A DNA stretch of 64,000 nucleotides, from assembly GCA_964565425.1 (NCBI GenBank), contig CAZMEZ010000004.1:24907-88906 (forward strand). Direction: 5' to 3'. The DNA is from an uncultured Planctomycetia bacterium. Its GTDB lineage: Bacteria > Omnitrophota > Gorgyraeia > Tantalellales > Tantalellaceae. The notes beneath the pieces were generated by a model that worked only from the letters and a program-made list of their open reading frames with translations, was not told where the DNA came from and did no database searches. This document shows positions 20,614-49,759 of the stretch, in pieces (positions within the stretch are counted from its first letter, which is position 1; each line of letters starts with the position of its first letter). A program made the position numbers and the translations under genes.

Positions 20614-20629
20614 CGGGCAAGGGCGTATC

Positions 20630-22035: not shown

Positions 22036-22049
22036 CATAGGAGAAGTAT

Positions 22050-23249: not shown

Positions 23250-23273
23250 CCATATTAATAAAGGCCGAAAAGT

Positions 23274-24431: not shown

Positions 24432-24484
24432 GCGGGGTCCACTGCAGGACAAGGGAGCCGCTGAAGCCGCGGGAAAGAGGCGAT

Positions 24485-25243: not shown

Positions 25244-25586
25244 AGAGATCGCATAGCGCAAAGCGCATAGCGGTTCGCGATGTGCGGTTAGCGGGTCGAG
25301 AAAGTAAATAATAAGTGATACGTGATACGCAGGCTAGAGGCACGAGGCTAGAGGCACGAGGCTAGAGGCAAGAGGCAAGAGGCAAGAGGCGAAAGAAAGG
25401 CGTTGATTACGAAGATTAAGACGCAGACGATGATCTTAGATTACGAAGATCTGATCCCCGTAATCTATTTAAATCTTCGTAATCAAATTATATAGTACGC
25501 GTTATCTGTGATCATCTGTTTTAAATCTGTGCTCATCCGTGTTTTAAGGAAAAACGAACGACGAACGGCGAACAACGGACGACGAT
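25244..25586. repeat. Composite intergenic heptamer-repeat element (343 bp)
   Basis: In order: agcgcat-type heptamers; gtgatacgtgatacg; nine ggcNNga heptamers (ggctaga/ggcacga/ggcaaga) at 25332-25394; an inverted pair gattacgaagat ... atcttcgtaatc at 25405-25483; and gtgatcatctgttttaa plus cgaacga heptamers at 25507-25586. Homologous to 47702-47868, 59384-59700 and 61343-61700. Confidence 0.7.
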
Positions 25587-27050: not shown

Positions 27051-27051
27051 A

Positions 27052-28077
27052 ATGGCGAAGAAGAAAAGATCCAACAGGTGTTTGATGGTAGCGGAGGTGT
27101 CAGCCAACCACGGCCGGAACTTAAGGCAGGCTGTGGCCATGATAAGGAAGGCGAAGGAATGCGGCGCCGACGCGGTAAAGTTCCAGACGTACACTCCGGA
27201 TACGCTTACGATCGATTCGGACAGGAGTTTCTTCAGGGTCAAACACCCCAAATGGAAGGGGCAGACGCTTTACCAGCTTTACGGGAAGGCATATACGCCC
27301 TGGGAATGGTTCGCGAAACTCAAAAAAACGGCGGATTCCGAAGGTATCATGTTCTTCTCGACCGCTTTTGACAGGACGTCGGTCGATCTTCTCGAGAAGC
27401 TCAATGTGCCCGTTCATAAAATAGCTTCGTTCGAGCTTGTCGACCTGCCGCTCATCGAGTACGCGGCAAAGACCGGTAAACCCCTGATCATGTCCACGGG
27501 CATGGCGACGAAGGCGGAGATAAAAGAAGCCGTGGATGTCGCGAGAAAGGCCGGGGCTAAGGATATAACGCTTTTAAAATGCGTGTCGAGTTATCCGGCG
27601 GAACCGCGCGAAATGAATCTCCTGACCCTGCGGGATATGAAGGAGAGTTTCGGCTGCCCGGTCGGCCTTTCGGACCACAGCATGGGGATAGGCGCATCGA
27701 TAGCCGCGGTTGCCCTGGGGGCGACCGTGATAGAGAAGCATTTTACCTTATCAAGGAAGATAAGGACGCCGGACAGCTTCTTCTCGATCGAGCCGGATGA
27801 GCTGGAAAGGCTCATCGTGAACGCGAGAATAGCGGAGAAGGCCGTGGGGAAGGTCCGTTACGGCCTTACCGGGGACGAAAAGAAGAGCAAGGCGTTCAGG
27901 CGGTCGCTTTTCGCGGTCAAGGATATAAAGAAAGGAGAAGTTCTCAACGCCGAGAACGTGAGGTCCGTGAGGCCCGCGAACGGCCTGAGCCCCAAATACG
28001 CGGACGCGGTTTACGGCAAAAAGGCGAAAAAAGGCATCAAAAAAGGCACCCCGCTGGGGTGGGAGCATATATCGTGA
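27052..28077 (+). CDS. pseI: Pseudaminic acid synthase (NeuB family)
   Basis: NeuB TIM-barrel (VIAEVSANHG, KFQTY) with a C-terminal antifreeze-like domain. Confidence 0.8.
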   Translation: MAKKKRSNRCLMVAEVSANHGRNLRQAVAMIRKAKECGADAVKFQTYTPDTLTIDSDRSFFRVKHPKWKGQTLYQLYGKAYTPWEWFAKLKKTADSEGIMFFSTAFDRTSVDLLEKLNVPVHKIASFELVDLPLIEYAAKTGKPLIMSTGMATKAEIKEAVDVARKAGAKDITLLKCVSSYPAEPREMNLLTLRDMKESFGCPVGLSDHSMGIGASIAAVALGATVIEKHFTLSRKIRTPDSFFSIEPDELERLIVNARIAEKAVGKVRYGLTGDEKKSKAFRRSLFAVKDIKKGEVLNAENVRSVRPANGLSPKYADAVYGKKAKKGIKKGTPLGWEHIS

Positions 28078-28817: not shown

Positions 28818-29500
28818 AAAAAGAGATAGTAGCGCTCATACCGGTCAAGGGTTCGTCGGAACGGGTGAAAGCCAAGAACACGAGACCCTTCCACGACACC
28901 AGCCTGTATGAACTGAAGCTCAGGCATATGAAGGAAGTCGGGGGATTCGCGAACGTCATAGTGTCTTCCGAGAGCAAGGATATACTCAGGGCGGCGAAAA
29001 AGACGGGATTTGACACCCACCTCCGTGATCCTAAATATTCCACGAGCACGGTCCCCATGAGCGACGTCTATTCATATATCGCCTCCGAGATAAAGGGGGA
29101 GCATATCGCGTGGGTCAACGTTACTAACCCGCTGGCGGGGCCGGAAGTATATGAAAAAGCCATAGAAAAATATAATTCCATGGGCCCCGGGCATGACTGT
29201 CTTTTGAGCGTTTCGGAGATGAAAGAATACCTTTTCCATGACGGCAGGCCTGTCAATTTCCGTCCCAACCCGTGGCCGAGATCCCAGGACCTCCAGGACG
29301 TGTATGCCATGTCCTTCATAATAAACATCCTCAGGAGAGAGGACATGGTCAGGTGGGGTTCGTGCGTCGGCGAGAAGCCGTATTTCTTCTGCCTGGACAG
29401 GGTTACCTCGAAGGACGTGGATTTTCAGGAGGATTTCGATTTTTGCGAGACGATCTATAAGAAGCGCTGTGAAGCCGTGAAACAGGAGAGTTGCAGGTGA
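28814..29500 (+). CDS. pseF: Acylneuraminate cytidylyltransferase family (CMP-pseudaminic acid synthetase-like)
   Basis: ALIPVKGSSERVKAKN motif of NeuA/PseF (CTP_transf_3). Confidence 0.7.
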   Translation: MKKEIVALIPVKGSSERVKAKNTRPFHDTSLYELKLRHMKEVGGFANVIVSSESKDILRAAKKTGFDTHLRDPKYSTSTVPMSDVYSYIASEIKGEHIAWVNVTNPLAGPEVYEKAIEKYNSMGPGHDCLLSVSEMKEYLFHDGRPVNFRPNPWPRSQDLQDVYAMSFIINILRREDMVRWGSCVGEKPYFFCLDRVTSKDVDFQEDFDFCETIYKKRCEAVKQESCR

Positions 29501-30996
29501 CGGAAATTTTGAATTTCTCACATGACCGTAACGCGCCCTTCGAGCGGTCCGCTGCCGAGCTGAGGGACACTATAGACGCCTTCGCCGTCCGTCCGGAGTT
29601 GAACGGGTTGTATGACCATTTCGAACGTGATTATTCGTTGCCGCGCGACGTGGTGAGGCAGCAGATAAGGAAATATCTTGAAAAGGCGTATGATTATAAG
29701 ACATGCCGGTTTTCGGAGGATCTCTCCACGCGAAAGATCGCCTATATGGCGCTTAGACACATAGCATATCTACTGTACGTGGTTTTCACGTCGAGAAAAT
29801 ATGGAAAGCCCCCCAAGCGGTACGAACTGATATGCGAATGGGTCCTCGAGGGCGAAGAGATCGACCGGCTTTCCAGGCTCATCGGCCTTTTCGGGCGGGA
29901 GAATGTTTTGATCACTACCCCGTGCCCGGTGAATAAGCCGGGCTATAATATCGAATATCGTCCCTCCCCCTCCGCGACCCAAACCCAAAAGCAAAGTTTT
30001 TATGTCCCCAGGCTTTATGACCGGGAAGAGACGCTCAGGGCCTTTTCCCGGGAGATGCGCGAACTTAAGGTTTACGCGGACCTCTCGCGCAGGACAGGAG
30101 TGAACCTTCTGCCGGTCGCGGGCCATATAGTTAACCAGTACCTGTATTATACCTCTATATTCAAGCATAACCGGGCTAAATACTGTATACAGGAACGCCA
30201 TTACCAGACAAGCGCCATAAAGAACTTCCTGTTCCGTAAATACGGGGGCAAGTGTTCCGCGGCCACGCAGAAGAATATCCACCAGATCTCCAACTGCGGG
30301 TTTTATTATGACGCCGATGCTTTTTTCTCCCTGGGCAACAGGACCGCGGAAAGGGCTCTTGATTACGGCGCCAGGATCGGGCAGGTCGTGCCCGTAGGTT
30401 CGCTCTTCATGGAGCACGCCTGGTTCAATGGCGCGAAAGACAAGGGCCGTCCGGATAAGAGATACGATATCGTCTACCTGGGGATAAATTTCGCGAGGGC
30501 CAAAGACAACCTGGACAGCTATGCCTCTTTCGTCGACGACTATTACGAGACCTTCAGGTGGCTGGCCAGACTTTCCAGGGAAAACCCGGCCCTCAAGATA
30601 GGTATCAAGCATCACGGGAGCAACCATATCGACGAAAAAGAGACGGATATCATAAAGGGCAGCAATATCGAAACAATAGACCAGAAATTGAATTCTTACG
30701 ATATTGGTTTCAGCTCAAGATGCGCCGTGACCTATTGTTCGACGATGGGATATGAGCTTATTGCCCACGGTCTGCCGGTCCTTTTCCTGGACCCGGACAG
30801 GAGGAACGTCACGTGGTTCTCCGAGAAAAGCCTGGTGGACAATTGCCGTGTCACCACTTATAGCCAGTTTGACAGGGCGATAAAGGACCTGCTCGGGGGC
30901 AAGAACGCGCGCATGGAGACCGATGATATCTGCCTTAACAGCGCGGACGTTTCGGGAAGGATATACGAATATTTCAGGAAAGAGGTGAAGATATAA
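29491..30996 (+). CDS. Hypothetical protein, possible TagF/KpsS-like CDP-alcohol phosphotransferase or nonulosonic-acid transferase
   Basis: 501 aa and soluble. The C-terminal half (IKHHGSNH ... YDIGFSSRCAVTYCSTMGYELIAHGLPVLFLDPD) resembles the KxHP and D-x-S-S motifs of CDP-glycerol glycerophosphotransferases. Weak recognition only. Confidence 0.3.
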   Translation: MQVTEILNFSHDRNAPFERSAAELRDTIDAFAVRPELNGLYDHFERDYSLPRDVVRQQIRKYLEKAYDYKTCRFSEDLSTRKIAYMALRHIAYLLYVVFTSRKYGKPPKRYELICEWVLEGEEIDRLSRLIGLFGRENVLITTPCPVNKPGYNIEYRPSPSATQTQKQSFYVPRLYDREETLRAFSREMRELKVYADLSRRTGVNLLPVAGHIVNQYLYYTSIFKHNRAKYCIQERHYQTSAIKNFLFRKYGGKCSAATQKNIHQISNCGFYYDADAFFSLGNRTAERALDYGARIGQVVPVGSLFMEHAWFNGAKDKGRPDKRYDIVYLGINFARAKDNLDSYASFVDDYYETFRWLARLSRENPALKIGIKHHGSNHIDEKETDIIKGSNIETIDQKLNSYDIGFSSRCAVTYCSTMGYELIAHGLPVLFLDPDRRNVTWFSEKSLVDNCRVTTYSQFDRAIKDLLGGKNARMETDDICLNSADVSGRIYEYFRKEVKI

Positions 30997-31960: not shown

Positions 31961-33394
31961 ATGGCGAAAATATTGCTTATACATCCGCCTTTCGGCACCG
32001 GGGACGATAAACGTCCGCCGGACATCTTTGATCCGCATTTCCCCTGGGGCCTTGGCTATATAAGCGGGACGCTTAAGAAAGAAGGATACGATATCAAGGT
32101 CTTTGACATATACGTCCACCAGTGGGACAAGGCCGAGACCCTCGAAAAACTGAAGCTCGAGGAATACGACCTCGCGCTGATAACGGCCATGGCGACGCAA
32201 TATTTATACGTGAAATGGCTGGCCGGGGAGCTCAAAAAGAACCAAAAAGTGTGTAAGGTGATCCTCGGCGGCCAGCTTGCCACGTTCAGCCATGAAGTCG
32301 TCCTCAGGAATACGGCGGTCGATATCTGCGTCATAGGGGAAGGCGACGTAACGATAGTGGATCTTGTAAAGAACATCGATACTCCTCGCAGTGTTAAAGG
32401 GATAGCGCTCGGGGATGGAGATAAAGTGCTTAAGACCGGCCCCAGGGAGCTCATCAAGGACATCGACAGCATCCCGAACCCCGCGTACGAGCTTTTCAGG
32501 ATGGATATTTACAGGACGAACAAGCTTTATATACACCATAAATCGGCGGTCCTGTACAGCGAGCGGAAAAGGCCGCACGTGATGGCGATGATCACCGGGA
32601 GGGGGTGTCCCTTCGGTTGTAATTTTTGCAGCAGGACCTTCAGGAATATAAGGATAAGGTCCGTCGAATCGATCGTGAGGGAGATAGATTTTTTCATCAA
32701 GGAATACGGCGTAGGCGGCATAAACTTCGTGGACGAACTGCTGTTCCTAAAACAGGACACGATAGACCGCCTGGCGGAAGAACTCGGGAAGAGGGGGATC
32801 CTGTGGAACGGGCAGGCGAGGGTGGATACCATAAATCTTGAACGCCTGGAATTTTACAAGAAGAACGGCCTGGTCTCCATAGGGTTCGGAGTGGAATCGG
32901 GAAGCGACCTCATGCTCGAGAAGATGAATAAGGGCATCACCAGAGAGAAGATAGAAAGGGCGATACGGAAGACGCTGGAAGCGGGCCTGCATCTCAAGAT
33001 GACGCTGATCTTCGGGTATCCGGGAGAAACCCGCGAGACCCTGGAAGAGACGGTCGACATGTTCAGGCGCCTCAGGCATCCCGGCAGGAGGTTCTGTATT
33101 TTAACTCCTTTGCCCGGGTCGAAAGTCTATGAGTCGGCGAAGGAAGAGGGATTGATCTCCGATGAGGACGAATACCTTTCCAGCATATGCGAAGGGTATT
33201 GGAGAAGGGCCGTGAACATGACGGGGTTCGGGGATGACGAATTCGAGAAGGTCCGCTCGGAGACCGAAAGGAAGATGAGGGAGAATTATAAAGAATATCT
33301 TTCATCGCTGCCTCAGGACGAGGCGCGAGAACAATATTTACTGTGTGAAGAGGATTTCGAAAAGGATTTTATCAACAGACCGAAAGTGCAGTAG
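31961..33394 (+). CDS. B12-binding radical SAM enzyme (class B)
   Basis: N-terminal cobalamin-binding Rossmann-like domain, then CPFGCNFC (the CxxxCxxC radical-SAM motif). Confidence 0.8.
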   Translation: MAKILLIHPPFGTGDDKRPPDIFDPHFPWGLGYISGTLKKEGYDIKVFDIYVHQWDKAETLEKLKLEEYDLALITAMATQYLYVKWLAGELKKNQKVCKVILGGQLATFSHEVVLRNTAVDICVIGEGDVTIVDLVKNIDTPRSVKGIALGDGDKVLKTGPRELIKDIDSIPNPAYELFRMDIYRTNKLYIHHKSAVLYSERKRPHVMAMITGRGCPFGCNFCSRTFRNIRIRSVESIVREIDFFIKEYGVGGINFVDELLFLKQDTIDRLAEELGKRGILWNGQARVDTINLERLEFYKKNGLVSIGFGVESGSDLMLEKMNKGITREKIERAIRKTLEAGLHLKMTLIFGYPGETRETLEETVDMFRRLRHPGRRFCILTPLPGSKVYESAKEEGLISDEDEYLSSICEGYWRRAVNMTGFGDDEFEKVRSETERKMRENYKEYLSSLPQDEAREQYLLCEEDFEKDFINRPKVQ

Positions 33395-36199: not shown

Positions 36200-37942
36200 A
36201 TGGAACGATCGGGTAAAGAACTGATAATACTTGTGGATAAGGCCGGGCTGGCGGCCGCAGGCCGTTCGCTCCTGGAAAGGTGCGATCGTGTTGCCATGAC
36301 CCCGGACGCGATACTCGCCTTAGAGGAAGAAGGTCTGTCCTTTTCCACGTTCGACGATATTTACGGGTACAGGCAGTTTCGCGAGGACAACCTAAGGATG
36401 ATGGATGAGACGGAAGACCTGTTCAGGGATCTGGACAGGAAATACAGCGCGTCTTTGGAGTATCCCCGCGCTTTTACGGGCAATATACTGTGGTTCCTGG
36501 TGTTCTTTGCCAACGCCCTTTATCTTTCGAAAGTGTGCCGGTGGGCTAAGAACAACTATACTAAGGTCCATTTGGCCGGTAGCGCTAAGTACGACAGGCC
36601 GCTCAGGATAGACCTGGATTTCTCCGAAAGGGGGCTCGCGTTCTGCGATTTTAACCGGGAACTGGCCAGCAAGGTCAGCATGCTGAGGGATGTTTTATCC
36701 CCGGATTGTTACTGGAGCGCCAATGCCCCCCAAAGGGGCGCCGGACGGCCCGTCGGTAGACAACAGCTGTTATTTTCCGCGAGGCAGACGGTCAAAAAGC
36801 CTTTAGTCAGAGCGAGAGCGTTTTTTGAAGAACATTCAGGTAAAGATAAGGATGTCATATTCGTAGTGCGGGACAGCAATGAAGTGAATTTCGTAAAAAG
36901 ACACATGGGGGATGTTGCTCTCAAGAAACCGCTCAAGAGAATGCTCGAGGACGCGTTCGAAGGGCGTTTGGAGAAGCAGGATATCGAATGCTCTTTCGAA
37001 ACAGAGATCCGGAGTTTCGCGTTGAAATGGTTCCCGGAATTCGAAAAGCGCGTCCTGGAAGCGTTCGAGGCCTATTTTGAAAAAGCGGTTCGCTGTCTCC
37101 GGGCATTTATGGACAAAGTAGAGGAAGCGTTCAAAGCGGACTCCCCGAAGGCGGTGTTCTATTCGTTTTCCCCCAACAGGGTATACGAGGACGTGCTCGC
37201 TTACGCGGCGAACGAGAGGAACATACCCGTGTTCGCTTTCTGGCATGTCGGTTCTCATGAAAAAGACAAGGATATTTACGCGAAGTACCTGGAGAGCAAT
37301 GAAAACGTGAAAATGGATGTCCTGGAGGTAAGCAAATTCTACAACCTGCATCTGGACCGGAAGAGCGGCAGGGGCAAAGGTATTTTATACTTCCCCGGGA
37401 TCTTTAATTCATACAACTACAAGGATCTCATGGTCAACGTTCCCGATAGAGCGCTTTTTGAGGTTACCAGGGACATAGTGGAGGTTGTCGGCGAGTTCGG
37501 CGCGGAGATGGATATAAAGATACACCCTAATGACGAAGAATACAATTATACGTATTTCAGCAACCTGCTGAAGGCAAAGGGGGCCGGGAACATCGGCATA
37601 CTCAGGGGATTCCCGGCGGAAAAGATAATGAAGCATTACAGTCTCTTTATATTCGATTACGCCGGGACCAGCTTGATACCGGCTGCCGGGGTTTTCGACA
37701 CGCCGGCTATATTGTATATAACCGACGATAGTGTTTTGAGGGAGAAAGCGATCCCGGACCTGGAGAGAAAGTTCCATATGGCTCGGCACAGATCCGATCT
37801 TGTGAAGCACATTAGCCTTTATGTGCAGGGAAAACTGGAAACAAAAATAACGGGTGAGCACGCTTTCCCGGCAGGGGAAGAAGCCCCTTGCGTTAAGATG
37901 GCAGGGTATGTGAAGAGCGTGATCGATACCGTAAAAACCTGA
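36200..37942 (+). CDS. Hypothetical protein, TagF/KpsS-like putative phospho(no)transferase
   Basis: 580 aa. The C-terminal segment IKIHPNDEE ... IFDYAGTSLIPAAGVFDTPAILYITDD resembles the Glyphos_transf KxHP and D-x-S motifs. Paralogous in outline to 29491-30996. Sits immediately upstream of the PEP mutase gene. Confidence 0.35.
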   Translation: MERSGKELIILVDKAGLAAAGRSLLERCDRVAMTPDAILALEEEGLSFSTFDDIYGYRQFREDNLRMMDETEDLFRDLDRKYSASLEYPRAFTGNILWFLVFFANALYLSKVCRWAKNNYTKVHLAGSAKYDRPLRIDLDFSERGLAFCDFNRELASKVSMLRDVLSPDCYWSANAPQRGAGRPVGRQQLLFSARQTVKKPLVRARAFFEEHSGKDKDVIFVVRDSNEVNFVKRHMGDVALKKPLKRMLEDAFEGRLEKQDIECSFETEIRSFALKWFPEFEKRVLEAFEAYFEKAVRCLRAFMDKVEEAFKADSPKAVFYSFSPNRVYEDVLAYAANERNIPVFAFWHVGSHEKDKDIYAKYLESNENVKMDVLEVSKFYNLHLDRKSGRGKGILYFPGIFNSYNYKDLMVNVPDRALFEVTRDIVEVVGEFGAEMDIKIHPNDEEYNYTYFSNLLKAKGAGNIGILRGFPAEKIMKHYSLFIFDYAGTSLIPAAGVFDTPAILYITDDSVLREKAIPDLERKFHMARHRSDLVKHISLYVQGKLETKITGEHAFPAGEEAPCVKMAGYVKSVIDTVKT

Positions 37943-39649
37943 ATGGAGCGGCCTAAAATGGAAAAAATAAGAGATATACGCGAAGCTTTTGAAAGACCGG
38001 GATTGGCCCGGATAGTCGGGGCGCACGACGGGCTTACGGCGAAGCTTGTGGAGAAGAACGATTTTGACGGGGTGTGGGCGAGCGGCCTCGAGATATCCGC
38101 TTCCTACGCTATCCCCGACGCCAGCATTCTCACGATGTCGCAATACCTGGAAAGGGCCTGTGAAATGAAAGACGCGGTATCGATCCCCGTCGTCGCGGAC
38201 TGCGATACCGGATACGGCAATTCAAACAACGTGATACACATGATCAAGAAGTATGAAGCGGCGGGGATCTCCGGAGTATGCATAGAGGATAAGAGGTTCC
38301 CCAAAGTGAACAGCCTTCTCGCGGAAGGAAGGCAGGAGCTCGCTCCGATAGCCGAATTCGTGGGCAAGATAATGGCCGCGAAGAACGCCCAATGCTCGGA
38401 AAGGTTCATGGTAATAGCGAGGGTGGAAGCCCTTATAGCCGGGTGGGGGGAGCAGGAAGCCCTTCTCAGGGCCGAAAAATACGCCGAGGCCGGGGCGGAT
38501 GCCATCCTGATACATTCCAAGGCGAATACCGCCGATGAAGTCATAAGTTTCGCCCGAAAGTGGGACAGGAGGCTGCCTTTGGTCATAGTGCCTACCAATT
38601 ATCCGTCGGTCATGATGGATCTTGGTGAGAAGGAGCTGCTTGATCTGGGCATAAAAATGGTGATCTTCGCGAATCAGGGATTAAGAAGCGCTATCAGGGC
38701 CATAAACGACACTTTCGCCGAGATAAAACAGGCGGGAGGCATACATACGGTGGATGGGAAGATCGTCAGTCTTGATGAAGTTTTCCACCTGCAGGGCATG
38801 ACCGATTTCAAGAAGCAGGAGAAGGAATACCTGAAGTCGGAGAATGAAGATGTTGCCGTTATCATGCCCGCTGCCGGGAAACCGGCCCACCAGGATTCCA
38901 TCGTGCCGCTGCTCACGGACAGGCCGCTTTGCATGATAGATATCAACGGGAAGACCCTGCTTGAAAGGAATCTGAACACCCTGAAGGAATTGCGTATCAA
39001 GAACGTGAATATGGTTGTCGGCTACAAGAAAGAGAGCATCCTCAAGGGGCTCGACCTGGACGGCATAAATCTCATCACGAACGACGATTACAGGACCAAA
39101 CACCTGCTCCATTCCATCATGCTTGCCGAGCGGGAGATGAAAGACAGGACGCTTATAGTCTACGCCGACATACTGTTCGATAAGAATCTCGTCAGCAGGA
39201 TCCTGGGTCTCAAGGAGGACATAGTCCTGGTGGGGGATAACACCTACAAGAAGTATGGGAAACGCAACAAGAAACTCGAGCTGATCAAAACATCCGAACC
39301 CATGACCACCGGCAAACGGGAGATCGCCAACGACGAACTTTTTAGCGTGGAGAGGATCGGCAGGGAAGTGGACGAGGCACCCTCGAATTTTGAATTCGCG
39401 GGCATAGCTTATTTGTCAAGGAAAGGGACGCAGTCGCTGAAAAGACTTTATTGCGAAAGGAAAAAAGAATTGGAAGGCGGGGACGAAAGGTTCCATGAAG
39501 CCGGGGGTTTCGACCAGGCGTCATTTACGGATATAATACAGGAAGCGATCGACAGCGGGATTTCGGTAAAGGTGTTGCCCGTGAATTCCGGTTGGATGGA
39601 GATACATGAATTCGAGGATTACAGGTTCGCCTGTGAAAAGATAAAGTAA
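37943..39649 (+). CDS. ppm: Phosphoenolpyruvate mutase fused to a C-terminal nucleotidyltransferase (cytidylyltransferase-like) domain
   Basis: The N-terminal approximately 290 aa belong to the ICL/PEPM family and carry the PEP-mutase-specific EDKRFPKVNS motif (rather than KKCGH). The C-terminal approximately 250 aa form a GlmU/MobA-type NTP-transferase fold (VAVIMPAAGKPAHQDSIVPLL). Confidence 0.8.
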   Translation: MERPKMEKIRDIREAFERPGLARIVGAHDGLTAKLVEKNDFDGVWASGLEISASYAIPDASILTMSQYLERACEMKDAVSIPVVADCDTGYGNSNNVIHMIKKYEAAGISGVCIEDKRFPKVNSLLAEGRQELAPIAEFVGKIMAAKNAQCSERFMVIARVEALIAGWGEQEALLRAEKYAEAGADAILIHSKANTADEVISFARKWDRRLPLVIVPTNYPSVMMDLGEKELLDLGIKMVIFANQGLRSAIRAINDTFAEIKQAGGIHTVDGKIVSLDEVFHLQGMTDFKKQEKEYLKSENEDVAVIMPAAGKPAHQDSIVPLLTDRPLCMIDINGKTLLERNLNTLKELRIKNVNMVVGYKKESILKGLDLDGINLITNDDYRTKHLLHSIMLAEREMKDRTLIVYADILFDKNLVSRILGLKEDIVLVGDNTYKKYGKRNKKLELIKTSEPMTTGKREIANDELFSVERIGREVDEAPSNFEFAGIAYLSRKGTQSLKRLYCERKKELEGGDERFHEAGGFDQASFTDIIQEAIDSGISVKVLPVNSGWMEIHEFEDYRFACEKIK

Positions 39650-39662
39650 GGGGAAAAAGGAT

Positions 39663-41213
39663 ATGGCCAGGAAAGGAAAGATTTTGATCATGTCCCCGAA
39701 CCTCAAAGGGGTGAAAGGCGGCGTCAACCGTATCCAGCCGAGCCTCGGCGTGGGGTATCTGGCGGCGGTCCTCGAGAGAGAGGGGCATGAGGTCCACATA
39801 CGCGACACGGCGCTCGAAGGGCACGGCAATGAAGTGCTTCTGGAGGACGGGAAGACGATCATGAGGGGGGAATCGGACGCCGAGATCGCGAAATACGTCT
39901 CATCCCTCGGTCCGGATATCGTGGGGATCTCGGTCCTTTTTTCCAATCTCGCGGAACATGCCCATAAGATCGCGAAGATCGTAAAGGAAACGGATCCGGA
40001 TATCAAAGTCGTCATGGGCGGCAATCACATAACCAATTCCGCCCGGGACTATATCTATGCCCTTACGCCGGGAAACGAAGATTCGAATCTCGGCAGGATC
40101 TTTTCCGATATGGAAGACCGTAATATCGATTACGCCATGGCCGGCGAATGTGATTTCCAGTTCGCGGAACTGGTGGACGCTTTATTGAACAAAAAGGACC
40201 CGAAAAACATCGCCGGACTTGTTTACAGGAAGCCCGGGTGCGGGACGCCGGACGCGAACGTTACGGTCAATCCCAATTTCTCGGACAGGCCGGATATAAG
40301 GAGATTGCCGCATCCCGCGCGGCATCTCATGAACATGGAAGGATATTTCAAAATAGATCTTTTTCATTCGACCAAATCGCATTCGGAAAGGGTCCTCAAC
40401 GTCATGGCGGCGCGGGGTTGCCCGGAAAAGTGCGCTTTTTGCACCACTCCTTCTACGTGGGGCAACAGGATCAGGTGGAGGGATCCCCTGGATATTTACG
40501 AGGAGATCGTCTCATGCGTCGAAAGATACGGCATCGGAGAGATCCAGTTTGAGGACGATACGTTAACAAGCAGCAAAGCGCACATAATGGACCTGTGCGA
40601 ACTCATGGAACCCCTGGGCATCCCGTGGTGTACCCCGAACGGGACGAAGGTCAATTATTACATGGAACACCAGCTCGAGATGTTCAGGAGAATGGCGAAG
40701 GCCGGATGCTACCAGGTAACGTTCGGGTGTGAAAGCGGAGTGCAACGGGTACTTGACCGGATAGTCCGCAAGAATCTGCGTATCGAACAGATACCGCGCG
40801 CCATAGATAACGCTAAAAAAGCCGGCCTTTTGGTGCATACCTTCTGGATCGTCGGGTTCCCGGGCGAGACCAGGCGGGAGATGGAAGAGACCGTGGAATT
40901 CGCCGCACGGGCCGGAGCTGACAGTTATTCTATATCCACTTTCTCGCCTTTGCCCGGCACGCCCATTTACAGGCAGGTCGTAAAGGAGAATCTCTGGTGG
41001 GACCCTGAAGTCAGGACGAAAGACATGCTTTTCAGGAATTCCCTTATCAGGGTCGACGAGTTCAGCGGTCCGGAGGAATTCCAGGCGTGGGTGGACGAGA
41101 AGAACGCCCATCTTAACGGTCTACTTGAAGAAAAGGACCCGGAGCGGGCGAAATGGGTGCGCGAGAGCAATGCGAGACGCCTCAGGCACGAGGCGAAGTT
41201 CAAATATACCTGA
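39663..41213 (+). CDS. B12-binding radical SAM enzyme (class B)
   Basis: B12-binding N-terminal domain and CPEKCAFC radical-SAM motif. Confidence 0.8.
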   Translation: MARKGKILIMSPNLKGVKGGVNRIQPSLGVGYLAAVLEREGHEVHIRDTALEGHGNEVLLEDGKTIMRGESDAEIAKYVSSLGPDIVGISVLFSNLAEHAHKIAKIVKETDPDIKVVMGGNHITNSARDYIYALTPGNEDSNLGRIFSDMEDRNIDYAMAGECDFQFAELVDALLNKKDPKNIAGLVYRKPGCGTPDANVTVNPNFSDRPDIRRLPHPARHLMNMEGYFKIDLFHSTKSHSERVLNVMAARGCPEKCAFCTTPSTWGNRIRWRDPLDIYEEIVSCVERYGIGEIQFEDDTLTSSKAHIMDLCELMEPLGIPWCTPNGTKVNYYMEHQLEMFRRMAKAGCYQVTFGCESGVQRVLDRIVRKNLRIEQIPRAIDNAKKAGLLVHTFWIVGFPGETRREMEETVEFAARAGADSYSISTFSPLPGTPIYRQVVKENLWWDPEVRTKDMLFRNSLIRVDEFSGPEEFQAWVDEKNAHLNGLLEEKDPERAKWVRESNARRLRHEAKFKYT

Positions 41214-41234: not shown

Positions 41235-42392
41235 ATGATAGATTGTTCGGATTTTTTTGAAGCGCTTAAAAACAGGAACCTGGCCTTTTTCACGGGCGTT
41301 CCGGATTCTTTGCTCAAGGATATCTGCGCCTGTATTTCCGATAATACGGGACCGGGAAACAACATCATCGCGGCGAATGAAGGGAACGCCGTCGCTTTGG
41401 CTGCCGGTTATCACCTGGCTACAGGAGAGATAGGCACCGTATACATGCAGAATTCAGGGCAAGGGAACGCGGTCAACCCCTTGACCTCCCTGGCGGACCC
41501 CGACGTTTACGGGATACCCATGCTGATGATCATCGCCTGGAGGGGTGAACCCGGAGGGAAGGACGAACCGCAGCATCTTAAACAGGGAAAGATCACATTG
41601 GAGATGCTCGACACCCTTAATATTCCTTATTCTGTTTTGCCGGAGGACACGATGGGATCCGGGAAGGTCCTGGATAGAGCTGTTGGATATATGGGGGACA
41701 AAAAGGCTCCGTACGCGTTGATCGTCAGGAAGGGCATTTTTGGGCCATATGTTACGCGGGACGTTGATATGCCGACCGGCGGACTTATGAAAGAAGAAGC
41801 GCTTAAACTCGTGGTCGGGAGTGTAGGGGAGCGGGACGTGATCGTCTCCACGACGGGAACGACCTCGAGAGAACTCTTCGAGCACAGGAAAGAGATCAAA
41901 GAAGGCCAGGGGAGGGATTTCTTGACAGTCGGTTCCATGGGGCATGCTTCCTCCATTGCTTTGGGGATAGCGCTCAGGAAGAAGGAACGGGATATTTATT
42001 GTCTGGACGGCGACGGGGCGGCCATCATGCACATGGGAGCGCTCGCCGTTATAGGCGACCAGTGCCCCCAGAACTTCAGACACATCATTTTTAATAACGG
42101 GGCCCATGATTCCGTGGGAGGGCAACCGACTGCCGGGTTCAGGATCGATTTTCCGGCTATCGCCATGGCTTGCGGGTACAAGGCGGCATTCAAGGCGGAA
42201 AACGCGGAGGAGATAGTGGAAAAGATGTCTTTATTGCGGGAGATTGACGGCCCGGCCCTGTTGGAAATAAGGGTAAGGAAAGGCTCGAGAAAGGACCTGG
42301 GACGTCCTTCGGTATCGCCGGTAGAAGGGAAAAAAGCTTTTATGGATTTTTTGTTCGAAAAGGATAAAGATCGCCAATCTCCGGAGGGATAG
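41235..42392 (+). CDS. ppd: Phosphonopyruvate decarboxylase (TPP-dependent)
   Basis: The N-terminus FFEALKNRNLAFFTGVPDSLLKD is diagnostic of Ppd/AepY-type (sulfopyruvate-decarboxylase-family) enzymes. Has a TPP-binding GDG..N region. Confidence 0.8.
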   Translation: MIDCSDFFEALKNRNLAFFTGVPDSLLKDICACISDNTGPGNNIIAANEGNAVALAAGYHLATGEIGTVYMQNSGQGNAVNPLTSLADPDVYGIPMLMIIAWRGEPGGKDEPQHLKQGKITLEMLDTLNIPYSVLPEDTMGSGKVLDRAVGYMGDKKAPYALIVRKGIFGPYVTRDVDMPTGGLMKEEALKLVVGSVGERDVIVSTTGTTSRELFEHRKEIKEGQGRDFLTVGSMGHASSIALGIALRKKERDIYCLDGDGAAIMHMGALAVIGDQCPQNFRHIIFNNGAHDSVGGQPTAGFRIDFPAIAMACGYKAAFKAENAEEIVEKMSLLREIDGPALLEIRVRKGSRKDLGRPSVSPVEGKKAFMDFLFEKDKDRQSPEG

Positions 42393-43513
42393 TGTTGAAT
42401 TATCGCATGCCGACGAACATAAATTTTGGTAAAGATTGCCTGGCCGGTCTGGCCGATGTTATCGCGCCTGGCCCGGCGGGGAAAGTCCTTGTTTTCACGG
42501 GAACAGGATCGGCTAAAATTTCAGGCGCTCTTGACCGTATAACCGGGATATTGTCCGGGTGCAACCCGGTCTTTTTTGAAGGTATAGAGCCCGATCCCGC
42601 CTTAGAGAGCCTGGAAAGAGGCATAGAAGTGTGCAGGCGGGAGGTCCCGGACCTCATCATAGCGGTCGGCGGAGGCAGCGTTATCGATTACGCGAAAGCG
42701 GTTTCCGTCCTGGCGGGGGAAGAAGGGGAAGTGTCGGATTTCTTCAGGGGCGGACGGAAACTAAAAGGCGGCAGGGCCGCGTTTATCGCGGTCCCGACCA
42801 CTTTCGGCACTTCGAGCGAGATAACCCCTTACGCGGTGATGACCGATACGGTAAACGGTATCAAGATCACCCTGGAAGACGCGAGCATATTCCCGGACCG
42901 GGCGTTCATTGACCCGAAATTTACCTTGACGATGCCGGAAGAGCTCGTGGCCGCCTCCTGCGCGGATCTCCTGTCCCACGCTGTCGAGGCGTACTGGAAC
43001 GTGAACGCCACGGAACTCACGGATATTTTCGCGTTGCAGGCCATAAGAACTTTCATGGGATCCTACAAGCGGACGTTCGAATCCCCCGCCGATACGGCAG
43101 CCAGGGGAAGGATAGTCCTGGCGGGCATATGCGCCGGATTGGCTTTTTCGAACACCAGGACAACGGCGTGCCACTCCATCTCATATCCGATGACCGCTGT
43201 CTTCGGCGTGCCTCACGGCATGGCATGCGTTTTAACGCTGGGCGAGATGCTGGAGTTCAATTCGACGGCTAGCGGGGAAAAGCTCCTGGCGTTGTGCGGC
43301 GCCATGGATTGCGGTGATGTGCGGGAAGCGAAACAGAAAATAGGATCTATCCTGAAAGATCTGCGCATTAAAACAAGATTAAGGGATTACGGCCTGAAAA
43401 AGGGCGATCTTGCCCTTATCCTGGACAAGGGGTTCACCCCGGAGAGGATGGCGAACAATCCCGGTAAGGTCACCAGGGACGACCTGGAAAAAATGCTGGA
43501 GAGGATATATTGA
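42392..43513 (+). CDS. Iron-containing alcohol dehydrogenase (phosphonoacetaldehyde reductase-like)
   Basis: Fe-ADH family (GGGSVIDYAKA). The position after ppd matches FomC/PhpC. A GTG start at 42392 overlaps the ppd stop. An ATG at 42407 is an alternative start. Confidence 0.7.
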   Translation: MLNYRMPTNINFGKDCLAGLADVIAPGPAGKVLVFTGTGSAKISGALDRITGILSGCNPVFFEGIEPDPALESLERGIEVCRREVPDLIIAVGGGSVIDYAKAVSVLAGEEGEVSDFFRGGRKLKGGRAAFIAVPTTFGTSSEITPYAVMTDTVNGIKITLEDASIFPDRAFIDPKFTLTMPEELVAASCADLLSHAVEAYWNVNATELTDIFALQAIRTFMGSYKRTFESPADTAARGRIVLAGICAGLAFSNTRTTACHSISYPMTAVFGVPHGMACVLTLGEMLEFNSTASGEKLLALCGAMDCGDVREAKQKIGSILKDLRIKTRLRDYGLKKGDLALILDKGFTPERMANNPGKVTRDDLEKMLERIY

Positions 43514-45000
43514 TGAAGAGACCCGAACAATTCAAGGTGCTGCTGGTCCTGGCTAACGGCTACATGGACTCACTGATACCGCCGAACATCTCGCTCTTGT
43601 CGGCCTACCTGAAGAGAGAAGCTTTCCAGGTAAGGCTTTTCGACACCGTTTTTTATAAAACAAAGGAAAAAACAGGCGACGATGTCCGGTATGAAACGCT
43701 GCAGGTCAAATCGGCTAACGTGGCCGAGTATGGCGTTACGCGCAAAGACGGTGACCTGATCGGGGATTTCAGAAAAGCCGTACTGGAATACGAACCTGAC
43801 CTCGTAGCGCTGTCGACGATAGAGGCTACGCATCCCCTGGGCATGTCGCTCCTGCGGAGCATAAGCGATATCGAGGTTGAAAAAATAGTAGGGGGGATAT
43901 ATACCACTATCAGCCCGGATGAAGTGATAAATGAAGATTGCGTCGATATCATCTGTATCGCTGAAGGGGACAACGCGCTGATCGAGCTGTGTCACAGGAT
44001 GAGGAAGGGAGAGGATTATTCCGATATCCGGAACCTGTGGGTAAAAAAGAACGGTTCGGTGTCCCGGAATGAACTGGCCACCCCCGTAGATATAAATAAA
44101 ATGCCCTTCCAGGACTGGTCGATATTCGACAAAAAACGTCTGTACAAGTCCATGGGGGGAAGGGTCAATATCACGGGATGCATCGAGCTGAACAGGGGAT
44201 GTCCTTATAACTGTACTTACTGCTGCAACGCGAAATTGCATGAACTGTACGAGAACAGGTTCTACCGGGAGCGGGATGTGAAGAACTTCGTGGCGGAAGT
44301 TGTGGAAAAAAAGGAAAAATACGACCTGGGTTATGTCTATGTAGCCGCCGAATCTTTCTTGACGACAAGAGAAGAAAGGTTCGAAGAATTCATCAAGCTG
44401 TACGGGGACGTGAAGATCCCGTTCTGGGTGCAGTCAAGGCCCGAGGCGATCCGGGAAGAAAGGATAGTCAAACTGGGATCCGTCGGCTGCGAGGGTTTGA
44501 GCGTAGGGGTCGAGAGCGGTAACGAGGAATACAGGAGGGACGTGTTGAACAGGAGGATGAGCAACGATGATATCGTCAGGGCGTTCAAGGTCCTGAGCAG
44601 GCATCCGGAGATCAGGAATTGCGCGAACAGCGTGATCGGGTTCCCCGACGAGACCAGGGGGCATATCTTTGAGACCATAGAATTGATCAAGAGGGTGCAG
44701 CCGAGGAACGTGATGGTCCACATATTCAACCCCTACAGGGGCACCAAACTGCACGATATATGCGTGGAAAAAAATTACCTGTCGAAGGACAGTCTGTGCG
44801 GGGACTACAGGATGGACGTGGCCATTGAGAATCCCAACCTGACCAAAGAAGAGATCAGGGGATTGCAGAGGACGTTCGCGTTATACGTGAGGTTCCCGGA
44901 GAACCGTTATAAGGAAATAGAACGCGCCGAGAAATTCGACAAAGAGGGTAATGAGTTGTTCGGGAAATTAAGCGTGGAATTCAAAAGCAAGTATTTATGA
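43510..45000 (+). CDS. B12-binding radical SAM enzyme (class B; Fom3-like methyltransferase candidate)
   Basis: B12-binding domain and CPYNCTYC motif. Sits directly after the ppd-adh pair. Confidence 0.8.
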   Translation: MMKRPEQFKVLLVLANGYMDSLIPPNISLLSAYLKREAFQVRLFDTVFYKTKEKTGDDVRYETLQVKSANVAEYGVTRKDGDLIGDFRKAVLEYEPDLVALSTIEATHPLGMSLLRSISDIEVEKIVGGIYTTISPDEVINEDCVDIICIAEGDNALIELCHRMRKGEDYSDIRNLWVKKNGSVSRNELATPVDINKMPFQDWSIFDKKRLYKSMGGRVNITGCIELNRGCPYNCTYCCNAKLHELYENRFYRERDVKNFVAEVVEKKEKYDLGYVYVAAESFLTTREERFEEFIKLYGDVKIPFWVQSRPEAIREERIVKLGSVGCEGLSVGVESGNEEYRRDVLNRRMSNDDIVRAFKVLSRHPEIRNCANSVIGFPDETRGHIFETIELIKRVQPRNVMVHIFNPYRGTKLHDICVEKNYLSKDSLCGDYRMDVAIENPNLTKEEIRGLQRTFALYVRFPENRYKEIERAEKFDKEGNELFGKLSVEFKSKYL

Positions 45001-45019: not shown

Positions 45020-45739
45020 ATGAAAGCAGTTATAGTAGCGGCAGGAAGATCGAGCAGGTTGTATCCATTGACCCTGGACACGCCGAAACCTCTCCTGGAG
45101 GTCAACGGCAGGTCCATCATCGAGCGTTCCATTTCCAATCTTCGCCGGAACGGCATAGACGAGATCGGGGTAGTGGTCGGCTATCTGCGGGAACGGTTCC
45201 TTGAAGCGCTGAAGGACGGGGTGACGTTCATCGATAACCCGCGTTACGCGACCACGAACAACATGGCTTCCCTCTGGTATGCCAGGGATTTCGTGGGGGG
45301 TGACGAGTTCGTGTATCTGCACGGGGACGTAGTGTACCACCCGGACATACTTGAAGATTGCCTGAGGTGCGACGGTGATATCACCCTGATGGTCGACAAA
45401 AAGAAGTGCGACGAAGAGGACATGAAGGTAAGGGTTGCGGGTGACCGCTTCCTGGGATCCAGCAAGGACATACCGGTGAATGAGTCCTACGGGGAGTGGA
45501 TAGGGATCGCTAAATTTTCCGCCAAGGGCGGGAGCCTGGTATTCAGCGAAATAGACAAGGTGCTGGACGACGGGAAGAACAACGCTTATGACACCTATGC
45601 TTTTACGGGACTGGCCATGCGGGATCACCCGATAGATATCTGCCATACGCGGGGCTTGTCCTGGGTCGAAATAGATTTTCCGGAAGAACTGGAAAGAGCA
45701 AAGAAGATATGCCTGGCCATGGAGAAAGAGGGGGAATGA
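45020..45739 (+). CDS. Nucleotidyltransferase (LicC-like small NTP-transferase)
   Basis: AVIVAAGRSSRLYPLTLDTPKPLL motif. 239 aa, catalytic domain only. Confidence 0.7.
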   Translation: MKAVIVAAGRSSRLYPLTLDTPKPLLEVNGRSIIERSISNLRRNGIDEIGVVVGYLRERFLEALKDGVTFIDNPRYATTNNMASLWYARDFVGGDEFVYLHGDVVYHPDILEDCLRCDGDITLMVDKKKCDEEDMKVRVAGDRFLGSSKDIPVNESYGEWIGIAKFSAKGGSLVFSEIDKVLDDGKNNAYDTYAFTGLAMRDHPIDICHTRGLSWVEIDFPEELERAKKICLAMEKEGE

Positions 45740-46653
45740 TGAGGTCCTTGAAGGATATCAGGAAAATGCAGTACGAGTATCATTACGAACATGAGATGTG
45801 CCAGTTCTTCAGGGATTGGAAGAAGGCCCCGTACTCGTATTTCAGGGGTATCATGTGGATGGAGATGAGCTCGTTCGTCGTTTATATCCTGCAGAGAACG
45901 AAGGTCACGCCCAATGCCCTCTCGGTCGCTTATTGCCTGTCCGGATTGGCCGGCGGGGTCCTGCTGGCTATCCCGATGAAGGCGACCATCCTTGCCGCTG
46001 TCTTTGTGTTCTTTTTTAAGGCGATATTCGACTGGTGCGACGGCTTGCTCGCGCGCGTAACGCGCAAATTCTCTCTTGTAGGGGATATACTGGATTGCTA
46101 CGGTGCCATTTTGGGAGCCATGGGGCTTGAGATAGGACTGGGATTCTATGTAGCCCACAGATCCGGCATGGCCCTGTATTACTATCTTATACCTCTTATT
46201 CCCTTATTTTTCTTTGGTAAGCTGCACTCGTTCGTGTTTCACATATTTTACAAGAACTATATTACGACCCCGAGATTGAAGGAACTTTTCGGCAAACAGG
46301 CGCGGGATCACGCGGCACAGGCCGCCGGCAGCGGTCCGGAAAAGGTCCTTAGCGGGGGGTTCGAAAAAATAAGGAATTTCATCAACAATTTTCTGGATCA
46401 TCGTTCCAGGACCATAGATCTTATATGCCTGTTGCTTTTGGTGGAGCAGTTCACGCCCGTTTTCGTCACATGGATAGTGTTCCTGGGGTTTGTGATCAAG
46501 GAATTTCTGTTGTTCTCGGCTTCGTTCTATGTCGTAGCGAGGCGCGGGTGGGCGGAAAAAGAGATGGAAAAGAAACTTGCAGAGATATCGGGATCTTTCC
46601 CGCGGGGGGCGGAAAAGAGCGGCGCCGAAGTTCCGGTATCGCCGGAGGAGTGA
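45736..46653 (+). CDS. CDP-alcohol phosphatidyltransferase-family membrane transferase
   Basis: DWCDGLLAR-x8-G-x3-D signature within a polytopic membrane protein. Start set at the ATG overlapping the upstream stop (ATGA). Confidence 0.65.
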   Translation: MMRSLKDIRKMQYEYHYEHEMCQFFRDWKKAPYSYFRGIMWMEMSSFVVYILQRTKVTPNALSVAYCLSGLAGGVLLAIPMKATILAAVFVFFFKAIFDWCDGLLARVTRKFSLVGDILDCYGAILGAMGLEIGLGFYVAHRSGMALYYYLIPLIPLFFFGKLHSFVFHIFYKNYITTPRLKELFGKQARDHAAQAAGSGPEKVLSGGFEKIRNFINNFLDHRSRTIDLICLLLLVEQFTPVFVTWIVFLGFVIKEFLLFSASFYVVARRGWAEKEMEKKLAEISGSFPRGAEKSGAEVPVSPEE

Positions 46654-48823: not shown

Positions 48824-49759
48824 ATGAAGTTTTCGATCACCATACCTTTATTTAACGGCGCGAAATTCATAGCGAATACGCTTGATTCGGTCCTGGCGCA
48901 GACATACAAGGATTATGAAGTGATCCTGGTCAACGACGGTTCACCGGATAACATCGGTGAAGTGGTCCGCGAATACATGGGCGCGCACCCCGAAACGCGT
49001 TTTATTTACGTGGAGCAGGAGAACCGCGGGTTGGGAGGGGCGAGGAACACCGCCATAAAGCACGCTTCCGGCGATATCATAGCGATCCTGGACCAGGATG
49101 ACATCTGGTACCCGGAAAAGCTGGAGAGGGTGGCGTATATATACCGGCAGTCCCCCGAAGTCGACGTTGTATGCCACGGCCAGATAGTGCGCCGGGACGG
49201 GAAGGTGGTGCGCATTTTCGATCCCGGTCCGGACAACAATATTCACCGGAGGCTGCTCTTTGTCGATAACATGCTTTCCACCTCGGCTACGACCTTCAGG
49301 AAAGCCATTATAGATGAAATAGGGGGTTTTTCGGAGGACAGGGAGAACTTTCATTTCGCCGAGGACTATGACCTTTGGCTGAGGATGGCGGATAAAGGAT
49401 ACAAGTTCCGTTTCACCGGCGAGATCCTCGGCGAATACAGCGAACATGATTCTAATTTTTCACATAATCTGGAAGTGATGCTGGATAGCGAGATAAACGT
49501 TTTATTGAAACATTATAAGTCCTTTAAAAGCAAGAACTTAAAGGATATTTACCTGATGAGGAGGAACCTCGCGGTGGTATATTTCCGCATCTCGAGAAAA
49601 TATTTCCGGCAGAAACGCGCTCTTTACGGTCTCGGATACCTGACAAGGGCTTTCCTGCAGGACCCGTTTTTTATCGTGACATACACACCGCATTACATCG
49701 AGAAGTTAATGCGCAAAAGGGATCCGGAGATCTCGCTCGGAGAAGAATTCCGATCATGA
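48824..49759 (+). CDS. Glycosyltransferase family 2
   Basis: GT-A fold with VNDGSPD and DQDD (DxD) motifs. Confidence 0.8.
   Translation: MKFSITIPLFNGAKFIANTLDSVLAQTYKDYEVILVNDGSPDNIGEVVREYMGAHPETRFIYVEQENRGLGGARNTAIKHASGDIIAILDQDDIWYPEKLERVAYIYRQSPEVDVVCHGQIVRRDGKVVRIFDPGPDNNIHRRLLFVDNMLSTSATTFRKAIIDEIGGFSEDRENFHFAEDYDLWLRMADKGYKFRFTGEILGEYSEHDSNFSHNLEVMLDSEINVLLKHYKSFKSKNLKDIYLMRRNLAVVYFRISRKYFRQKRALYGLGYLTRAFLQDPFFIVTYTPHYIEKLMRKRDPEISLGEEFRS

Follow-up and report, generated by a model that had tools for sequence, protein, structure and literature searches.

Phosphoenolpyruvate (PEP) mutases (Ppm) are often part of larger polypeptides: 59.5% of Ppm enzymes are fused, 33% with a PF12804 domain and 23.6% with a PF01467 domain, and no other architecture is as common as PF12804–Ppm, at ~33% of non-redundant Ppm (Rice et al. 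2019, PMC6697681). In Fom1, an example of the PF01467 fusions, the cytidylyltransferase is N-terminal and active on 2-hydroxyethylphosphonate (2-HEP), and gene clusters with both a ppm-fused and a separate transferase exist (Rice et al. 2019, PMC6697681). A large Burkholderiales group ('Burkholderiales_CDP-OH') also has a pair of PntCs, of which one is a fusion with Ppm (Li & Horsman 2022). The protein considered here is encoded by a single open reading frame (ORF) in a 64,000-nucleotide stretch of contig CAZMEZ010000004.1 (the window), which comes from an uncultured Planctomycetia bacterium placed by GTDB in the Omnitrophota. It consists of a PEP mutase followed by a PF12804-type nucleotidyltransferase-like domain, an architecture which is already described and common, and therefore not novel. 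What may matter is that the nucleotidyltransferase signature is lost in 217/217 relatives of this architecture, from Omnitrophota to Methanosarcinales, despite strong conservation of the domain; of all the findings, a specialist might think only this signature, consistently degenerate across phyla, worth an experiment.

The signature of the transferases, GXG(T/S)RX4-8PK, was defined by Rice et al. (2019, PMC6697681). According to the same work, pyrophosphate is held by Arg15 together with the turn's backbone, and Lys25 stabilises the pentacoordinate transition state; less than 10% of the activity of Tde-PntC remains after the substitutions R15A, K25A or K153A, and the equivalent Lys-to-Ala substitution abolishes the activity of FrbH and YgbP. 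The signature was not found in the fused domain, where the corresponding loop reads AAGKPAHQDSIVPLLTDRPL. In this loop the second glycine of the turn is replaced by proline, and Arg15 and Lys25 of LicC/PntC correspond to S319 and L329. In the numbering of the canonical stand-alone relatives, the invariant residues R13, K23 and D219 fall on S319, L329 and H555, a mapping on which a HMMER alignment to LicC, a MAFFT alignment with canonical relatives and a profile–profile alignment agree. The canonical invariants that are kept include the AAG turn, D409, W551 and E553, and the conserved positions of the nucleotide-binding half comprise AAG, G-Y, N380, S391, D409 and E553 (within GWxEI). Of the likely acidic metal ligands, namely the Asp after beta-5 and the Glu and Asp of W-x-E-I-D, D409 and E553 are retained, and the last, an invariant Asp in canonical enzymes, is H555.

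The loss of the signature is not accompanied by signs of decay. The dN/dS (ratio of non-synonymous to synonymous substitution rates) of residues 298–568 is ~0.10 in comparison with an 83%-identical relative (locus L082), and 20 columns of the domain are invariant in 49 homologues; the transferase-like domain is under purifying selection. The preliminary description of this DNA had named a non-catalytic relic lacking the G-x-G-x-R-L/K motif as something that would speak against its own reading. The motif is indeed absent, but a decaying relic is not borne out, and this candidate was rejected on account of the dN/dS value and the many invariant columns. The same pairwise comparison (L082, 10001..11692) has uneven synonymous divergence, the proportion of synonymous differences being 0.80 (saturated) in the mutase half versus 0.48 in the transferase-like half, with protein identities of 81% and 86%, respectively; a recombination breakpoint or differing constraints are possible causes.

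The pattern extends through the family. Among 217 proteins with an N-terminal mutase and a C-terminal nucleotidyltransferase-like domain (120 homologues, 80 genome loci and 17 representatives), GXG[TS]RX4-8PK occurs in none and a relaxed form, GxxxR...PK, in one. The relaxed form is present in 41 of the 44 stand-alone transferases that flank the same loci. An exhaustive search with the C-terminal domain gave the same picture: among the 150 representatives, no protein with an upstream EDK.....NS mutase motif carries the signature, and most full-length stand-alone relatives of 250–270 aa carry it, or the relaxed form, near position 9–16. Two groups can be distinguished among the fused domains, in both of which GxGxR is absent. 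The clade to which the protein from the window belongs is without the PK lysine and has G-W-x-E-I-H together with a nearly invariant R-N-K-K-L at aa 441–445, whereas in a deeper Nitrospira/Binatia clade RNKK is missing and the PK lysine and G-W-x-E-V/I-D are present. These correlated changes fit an active site that was rebuilt to compensate, but also a switch of function.

Relatives of the transferase domain take part in other fusions as well. Protein P0129 combines an adenosine 5′-phosphosulfate (APS) kinase, a PEP mutase and a degenerate transferase; P0220 is a transferase with an APS kinase and P0231 an Fe-dependent alcohol dehydrogenase (Fe-ADH) with a canonical transferase. The transferase is joined to type I phosphodiesterase or sulfatase domains in P0190 and P0218, to a helix–turn–helix domain in P0184 and to a GT2 glycosyltransferase in P0182. 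All the non-mutase fusions retain the canonical signature or its relaxed form.

The fused domain has lost the Arg and Lys that serve in triphosphate binding and in stabilising the transition state, along with one metal-site Asp, and it is probably not the domain that activates the phosphonate itself. Since the nucleotide-binding half of the fold is kept, a ligand-sensing or scaffolding role is favoured. The mutase would then be active, and the domain attached to it would be a remodelled and probably non-catalytic module that binds a nucleotide or a CMP-phosphonate and regulates or scaffolds the committed step, a reading that commands about as much belief as doubt. Somewhat more tentatively, the domain at the C-terminus of a large share of PEP mutases may be a pseudo-enzyme that still binds nucleotides without catalysing transfer, and that senses CMP-phosphonate, or CTP, produced by the separate canonical transferase and feeds back on the C–P bond-forming step, or that assembles a mutase–decarboxylase complex. 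A precedent is GMPPA, an inactive nucleotidyltransferase paralogue that senses the product of GMPPB.

Several observations weigh against a non-catalytic domain. The RNKK motif (aa 441–444) was gained together with the loss of the PK lysine and the exchange of Asp for His, so it could compensate and keep the domain catalytic; such a set of changes looks like the rebuilding of an active site rather than decay, and D409 and E553, the likely metal ligands, are retained. The genomic surroundings point both ways. Among the 43 related loci flanked by 5 kb or more on each side, a second transferase lies within 10 kb in 28, which favours a non-catalytic domain; ~13 have no other recognisable transferase within that distance, so the fused domain of those genomes may have to be active. 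The RNKK gain, the retained ligands and these ~13 loci, together with the strong conservation and purifying selection, speak for a truly bifunctional enzyme, the lost Arg and Lys being made up for by R441, K443 and K444, with H316 or H555 perhaps contributing. Such an enzyme would activate, for example, 2-HEP for the radical S-adenosylmethionine (SAM) enzymes encoded nearby, in a manner resembling Fom1 and Fom3, and the stand-alone transferase of the operon would act on a different, later substrate. Fom1, a Ppm-fused active cytidylyltransferase feeding a B12-binding radical SAM (B12-radical-SAM) methyltransferase, offers a precedent, and five B12-radical-SAM genes are present in the cluster. 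However, all three hallmark residues and the second glycine of the P-loop-like turn are gone, the loop has a three-residue insertion, and a single Ala at the Arg or Lys already cripples characterised homologues. The motif is kept in none of the 217 fusions, yet it is kept by neighbouring stand-alone enzymes, and the operon has a canonical enzyme to offer. A bifunctional protein is accordingly possible but rather doubtful. The idea put forward in the preliminary description, that the fusion channels C–P bond formation into nucleotide activation of a downstream phosphonate, corresponds to this bifunctional protein, shares its doubtful standing and is weakened by the absence of the signature here and in all 217 fusions, and by the canonical transferase at 45020..45739.

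Mapped with hidden Markov models (HMMs), as the preliminary description had proposed, the two domains occupy aa 19–261 (PF13714, PEP_mutase; E 2.9e-53, 181.3 bits against a gathering score of 31.5) and aa 331–423 (PF12804, NTP_transf_3, MobA-like; E 1.1e-6, 29.4 bits against a gathering score of 27). Both are above their gathering scores in one polypeptide with the Ppm motif, which places the protein in the Ppm–PF12804 fusion class, although the PF12804 match spans 93 of 160 profile positions and is borderline against the filter of at least 60% HMM coverage used by Rice et al. The assignment of the C-terminal half is strengthened by other comparisons. An NCBIfam Arch_glmU nucleotidyltransferase model covers aa 310–554, and a sequence search of the PDB matched aa 319–418 to the CTP:phosphocholine cytidylyltransferase LicC (1jyk, E 1.3e-7). 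An AlphaFold model of aa 298–568 alone, built with 48 homologues, has a predicted local distance difference test (pLDDT) score of 91.3 and a predicted template modelling (pTM) score of 0.90. The top Foldseek matches of this model are LicC 1jyk (E 1.3e-16, TM-score 0.80 on the target), the inositol-1-phosphate cytidylyltransferase (IPCT) 4jd0 and PntC-AEPT 6pd1/6pd2 (6pd2: TM-score 0.73 on the query). A profile alignment of 25 fused domains with 26 canonical stand-alone relatives by hhalign gave a probability of 100% and an E-value of 5.8e-70. Membership of the LicC/PntC-type fold is clear from the predicted structure. In the model of the full-length protein, the pLDDT falls to 55–62 around aa 280–300 and the pTM is 0.54, which leaves undefined how the two domains are oriented to each other; the PDB matches of the full-length model are to the PEP mutase family only.

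The fusion point follows the C-terminal helices of the barrel, and, the catalytic signature being lost, the second domain might be purely structural, controlling mutase oligomerisation or docking phosphonopyruvate decarboxylase (Ppd) for the fast removal of phosphonopyruvate while binding no ligand. Thermodynamics disfavours the PEP mutase reaction, which has to be coupled to Ppd (PMC12619172), and this need would suit such an arrangement. A mere scaffold, however, would have no need of the conserved nucleotide-binding half (AAG, GY, N380, S391, D409 and E553 in GWxEI), and a domain of this kind is improbable.

The N-terminal barrel is a real and complete PEP mutase as far as its residues can tell, and mutase activity is predicted. 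It contains the motif EDKXXXXXNS, which separates Ppm from other enzymes of the isocitrate lyase family (Rice et al. 2019, PMC6697681). A sequence search of the PDB matched aa 11–317 to PEP mutase 5unc (E 1.8e-94), and Foldseek matched the full-length model to the same structure (E 1e-30, 53% identity). Nine residues are invariant in 49 homologues: D59, D86, D88, E115, K121, N123, S124, R160 and H191. In an alignment to the Mytilus PEP mutase (1m1b), the numbering is that of Mytilus plus one; these nine residues thus correspond to D58, D85, D87, E114, K120, N122, S123, R159 and H190, presumably the catalytic and metal-binding residues of the Mytilus enzyme. The best NCBIfam model is the PEP mutase equivalog TIGR02320 (303.4 bits, narrowly below the cutoff of 319.55).

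The protein is 568 aa long from the first ATG of the ORF, which has zero internal stops, and the preliminary description was right in assigning an N-terminal PEP mutase and a C-terminal nucleotidyltransferase fold to it (PF13714 and PF12804; 5unc and LicC matches). A second ATG, at 37958, has GGAG 9 nt upstream and would give a protein of 563 aa, which is the length of both P0001 and P0002, the nearest homologues (96% and 83% identity); for both reasons the true start is probably ATG 37958. The protein database contained 2210 relatives at E < 1e-10 among 8000 candidates scored, and the best 120 of these are 536–584 aa long, nearly all covering 97–100% of the protein. A genome scan with one genome per species gave 580 relatives, of which the best 80 loci were analysed. 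They match essentially the entire protein, in all 80 both domains are within a single ORF, and they come from Omnitrophota, Chloroflexota, Desulfobacterota, Planctomycetota, Nitrospirota, Binatia, Methanosarcinales, Undinarchaeota, Woesearchaeota and others. In total, more than 200 full-length relatives are distributed over many bacterial and archaeal phyla.

These data bear on the least probable explanation, in which the fusion is an artefact of frameshift-joined genes or a miscalled ORF, or the barrel belongs to a phosphonopyruvate hydrolase or another isocitrate lyase family enzyme. The score of TIGR02320 is slightly below its cutoff and the hydrolase model TIGR02321 is close behind with 295 bits; TIGR02321, however, is much further under its own cutoff (295 vs 374 bits), the EDKXXXXXNS motif is present and the neighbours, Ppd and Fe-ADH, are biosynthetic. 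The single ORF in 120 database proteins and 80 loci from many phyla leaves no sign of the frameshift-split genes that the preliminary description had considered. Both the two-gene artefact and the hydrolase identity were rejected, and this explanation is effectively refuted. The coordinates of the gene, its parts and its neighbours are collected in Table 1.

Table 1. Features of the mutase–transferase gene and of the genes that follow it (positions in the window)
Feature	Residues	Position	Strand	Basis or remark
Whole ORF including stop codon	1–568	37943..39649	+	568 aa; 563 aa if started at ATG 37958
PEP mutase (Ppm/AepX) triosephosphate isomerase (TIM) barrel	1–297	37943..38833	+	PF13714, 5unc matches, invariant residues
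Ppm-specific motif EDKRFPKVNS (EDKXXXXXNS pattern)	115–124	38285..38314	+	Motif definition of Rice et al. 2019
Inter-domain linker KSENED	298–303	38834..38851	+	Low-pLDDT region of full-length model
LicC/PntC-fold nucleotidyltransferase-like domain	304–568	38852..39646	+	PF12804, AlphaFold, Foldseek, hhalign
Degenerate signature loop AAGKPAHQDSIVPLLTDRPL	310–329	38870..38929	+	Replaces GXG(T/S)RX4-8PK; 3-residue insertion
IVYADILFD with retained invariant Asp D409 (= D103 of canonical relatives)		39155..39181	+	
Clade-specific basic motif RNKKL	441–445	39263..39277	+	Absent from canonical relatives and from fused clade keeping PK lysine
GWMEIHE	550–556	39590..39610	+	Canonical W-x-E-I-D: Glu kept (E553), invariant Asp replaced by H555
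B12-binding radical SAM enzyme, directly 3′ of the fusion		39663..41213	+	Sden_1168-family P-methyltransferase model, 236 bits vs cutoff 575
Phosphonopyruvate decarboxylase (Ppd/AepY)		41235..42392	+	TIGR03297, 476 bits vs cutoff 312.5; both thiamine pyrophosphate (TPP) domains
Fe-dependent alcohol dehydrogenase		42392..43513	+	PF00465, PF25137; phosphonate-cluster Fe-ADH TIGR03405, 252 bits, below cutoff
B12-binding radical SAM enzyme		43510..45000	+	Conserved beside PepM, Ppd, ADH and nucleotidyltransferase genes in relatives
Stand-alone canonical nucleotidyltransferase		45020..45739	+	AAGRSSRL...TPK, WVEIDF; PF12804 and PF00483; best NCBIfam match IPCT/DIPPS-type
CDP-alcohol phosphatidyltransferase-family membrane protein		45709..46653	+	PF01066; hydrophobic segments

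The gene is part of a long operon on the + strand inside a glycan locus. Upstream of it are, in order, the genes of a methyltransferase, a B12-radical-SAM enzyme, an epimerase, an ABC exporter and a 580-aa protein without family matches. It is followed by a B12-radical-SAM enzyme, Ppd, Fe-ADH, another B12-radical-SAM enzyme, the canonical transferase and the CDP-alcohol phosphatidyltransferase-family protein, and further downstream by a methyltransferase, an RmlD-like reductase, a GT2, two B12-radical-SAM enzymes, a DegT aminotransferase, an epimerase and a GT1. The whole arrangement, including the pair formed by the transferase and the CDP-alcohol transferase, is syntenic in L082–L084, three contigs with an 83%-identical protein.

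The gene is predicted to encode the first enzyme of a pathway for a cell-surface (glycan or lipid) phosphonate. The barrel would convert PEP to phosphonopyruvate, and Ppd, which is encoded two genes downstream and passes its equivalog cutoff, would pull the unfavourable reaction forward. In the step order inferred here, Ppd and Fe-ADH would then lead from phosphonopyruvate through phosphonoacetaldehyde to 2-HEP, Fe-ADH being the likely phosphonoacetaldehyde reductase that makes 2-HEP, and the latter would probably be modified by the B12-radical-SAM enzymes. Nucleotide activation would most likely be carried out by the stand-alone transferase, the probable true phosphonate cytidylyltransferase, and transfer to an acceptor most likely by the CDP-alcohol transferase. 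The genes of these two proteins overlap by 31 nt and the pair resembles the bifunctional IPCT/DIPPS enzyme; the IPCT/DIPPS-type match of the transferase fits this pairing.

The operon contains five B12-binding radical SAM genes, namely the two in Table 1 and those at 31961..33394, 49756..51228 and 51245..52591, all on the + strand. None of the five proteins reaches an NCBIfam cutoff, and an identity with Fom3 was not indicated, since the PDB search gave AprD4 and generic matches only and the NCBIfam matches are all below cutoff. Because the enzyme directly 3′ of the fusion matches best the Sden_1168 P-methyltransferase model (the next NCBIfam match, to the PhpK family, has 119 bits), P-methylation giving a phosphinate is a possibility in this pathway, judging by the model match. 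A 57%-identical orthologue of this enzyme adjoins the fusion in the Nitrospinota locus L015. The fused domain itself has a weak match to the neighbouring 'Sden_1164 family' model of NCBIfam. Only the gene at 43510..45000 has been conserved widely alongside those of PepM, Ppd, ADH and the transferase; tblastn found its product with 71% identity in L001 and with 45–54% identity in the archaeal loci L027, L031, L035 and L042.

Further upstream, at 18728..28077 (+), is a nonulosonic-acid-type module with a DegT aminotransferase, a CMP-sugar cytidylyltransferase (PF02348) and NeuB; it also encodes HisH-/HisF-like amidotransferase/cyclase paralogues, a class-III aminotransferase, a metallo-beta-lactamase-fold protein and a GNAT fusion. 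Because of this module, the phosphonate may decorate a sialic-acid-like sugar. Two proteins of the region, encoded at 36200..37942 (580 aa) and 29491..30996 (501 aa), both on the + strand, have no Pfam match and no strongly hydrophobic segments, and the 580-aa protein has no NCBIfam match either. ORFs of 623 and 489 aa, likewise without Pfam matches, are found at the same two positions in L082.

The question raised by the lost signature is whether the fused domain activates phosphonates, as is generally assumed, or regulates or scaffolds the first committed step, and the answer bears on the interpretation of phosphonate gene clusters and on the choice of PEP mutases for engineered pathways. 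If the domain is indeed non-catalytic, the published view that nucleotidyl activation is fused to about 60% of Ppm would overstate the number of catalytic fusions, and phosphonate biosynthesis would turn out to have a widespread point of allosteric control. Tests of the activity of a fused PF12804 domain, or remarks on its motif, were not found in the literature, the coverage of which was incomplete; neither subject is addressed in Rice et al. 2019 (with supplements), in Li & Horsman 2022 or in the 2025 AepX cascade paper.

Among the described systems, Fom1 of Streptomyces wedmorensis, from the fosfomycin pathway, likewise combines a PEP mutase with a nucleotidyltransferase-type domain. In the fosfomycin cluster, Ppd is Fom2, Fe-ADH is FomC and the B12-radical-SAM enzyme is Fom3, and the cluster described here, similarly, has Ppd, Fe-ADH and B12-radical-SAM enzymes. 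The extra domain of Fom1, however, is N-terminal, belongs to PF01467 and is active on 2-HEP, whereas that of the protein from the window is C-terminal, belongs to PF12804 and is without the signature. The N-terminal position of the Fom1 cytidylyltransferase, as given in the preliminary description, agrees with Rice et al. (2019, PMC6697681). Because the two domains are of different families, the two fusions are independent, as that description had suggested, and the case is stronger than it would be from domain order alone. A Pfam search gave no PF01467 match in the protein, so it is not of the Fom1 type; homology of its extra domain with that of Fom1 was rejected in view of this and of the LicC-like fold.

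PntC and LicC (Tde-PntC 6pd1/6pd2, Spn-LicC 1jyk) share the fold of the fused domain (Foldseek E 1e-16 to 4e-13, TM-score 0.68–0.80) and detectable sequence homology with it, and are likewise linked to phosphonate clusters. Compared with them, the fused domain is without the signature, has His in place of the Asp of W-x-E-I-D, a three-residue insertion in the loop and the additional RNKK. The closest canonical relatives are stand-alone transferases of 250–270 aa from phosphonate clusters (for example P0198, P0216, P0261 and the protein encoded at 45020..45739; E ~1e-25 to 1e-20). They and the fused domain both have a helical insert, F-x-x-A-...-TD-x-x-Q-E-L-I-D-x-G, but the stand-alone proteins, unlike the fused domain, keep the invariant R13, K23 and D219 and have no mutase attached.

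The same domain order, PEP mutase and then NTP_transf_3, is found in Burkholderiales. The aepX product of Mycetohabitans rhizoxinica (WP_338861733, 564 aa; annotated by PGAP) was matched by tblastn in one piece over aa 27–565 of the protein from the window with 34% identity, and unannotated stretches of Burkholderia and Cupriavidus replicons were matched over aa 27–563 and 4–565 with the domains in the same order. The gene just upstream of aepX in M. rhizoxinica codes for a canonical 'phosphocholine cytidylyltransferase family protein'. The Burkholderiales cluster and the one described here have in common that Ppd, a CDP-alcohol transferase and a separate cytidylyltransferase are encoded as well. 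The C-terminal domain of the Burkholderiales AepX (M. rhizoxinica, L081, 6905..8599) is also non-canonical, with AASRGRGL instead of AAGxGxRL and HWRGVND instead of W-x-E-I-D. The Burkholderiales proteins, however, keep the PK lysine, are without RNKK and lie in 2-aminoethylphosphonate (aminotransferase) pathways, whereas the protein from the window is without the PK lysine, has RNKK and E-I-H and lies in a 2-HEP-type (Fe-ADH) pathway rich in B12-radical-SAM genes. A PF12804–Ppm fusion of reverse order, P0213 (562 aa), consists of the same two Pfam families, with the transferase at aa 3–124 and the mutase at aa 266–516, and its N-terminal transferase keeps both the Arg and the Lys (AAGGDDRL...VPK). 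Thus, as P0213 demonstrates, both orders exist for PF12804 fusions, and the signature is lost only in the C-terminal version.

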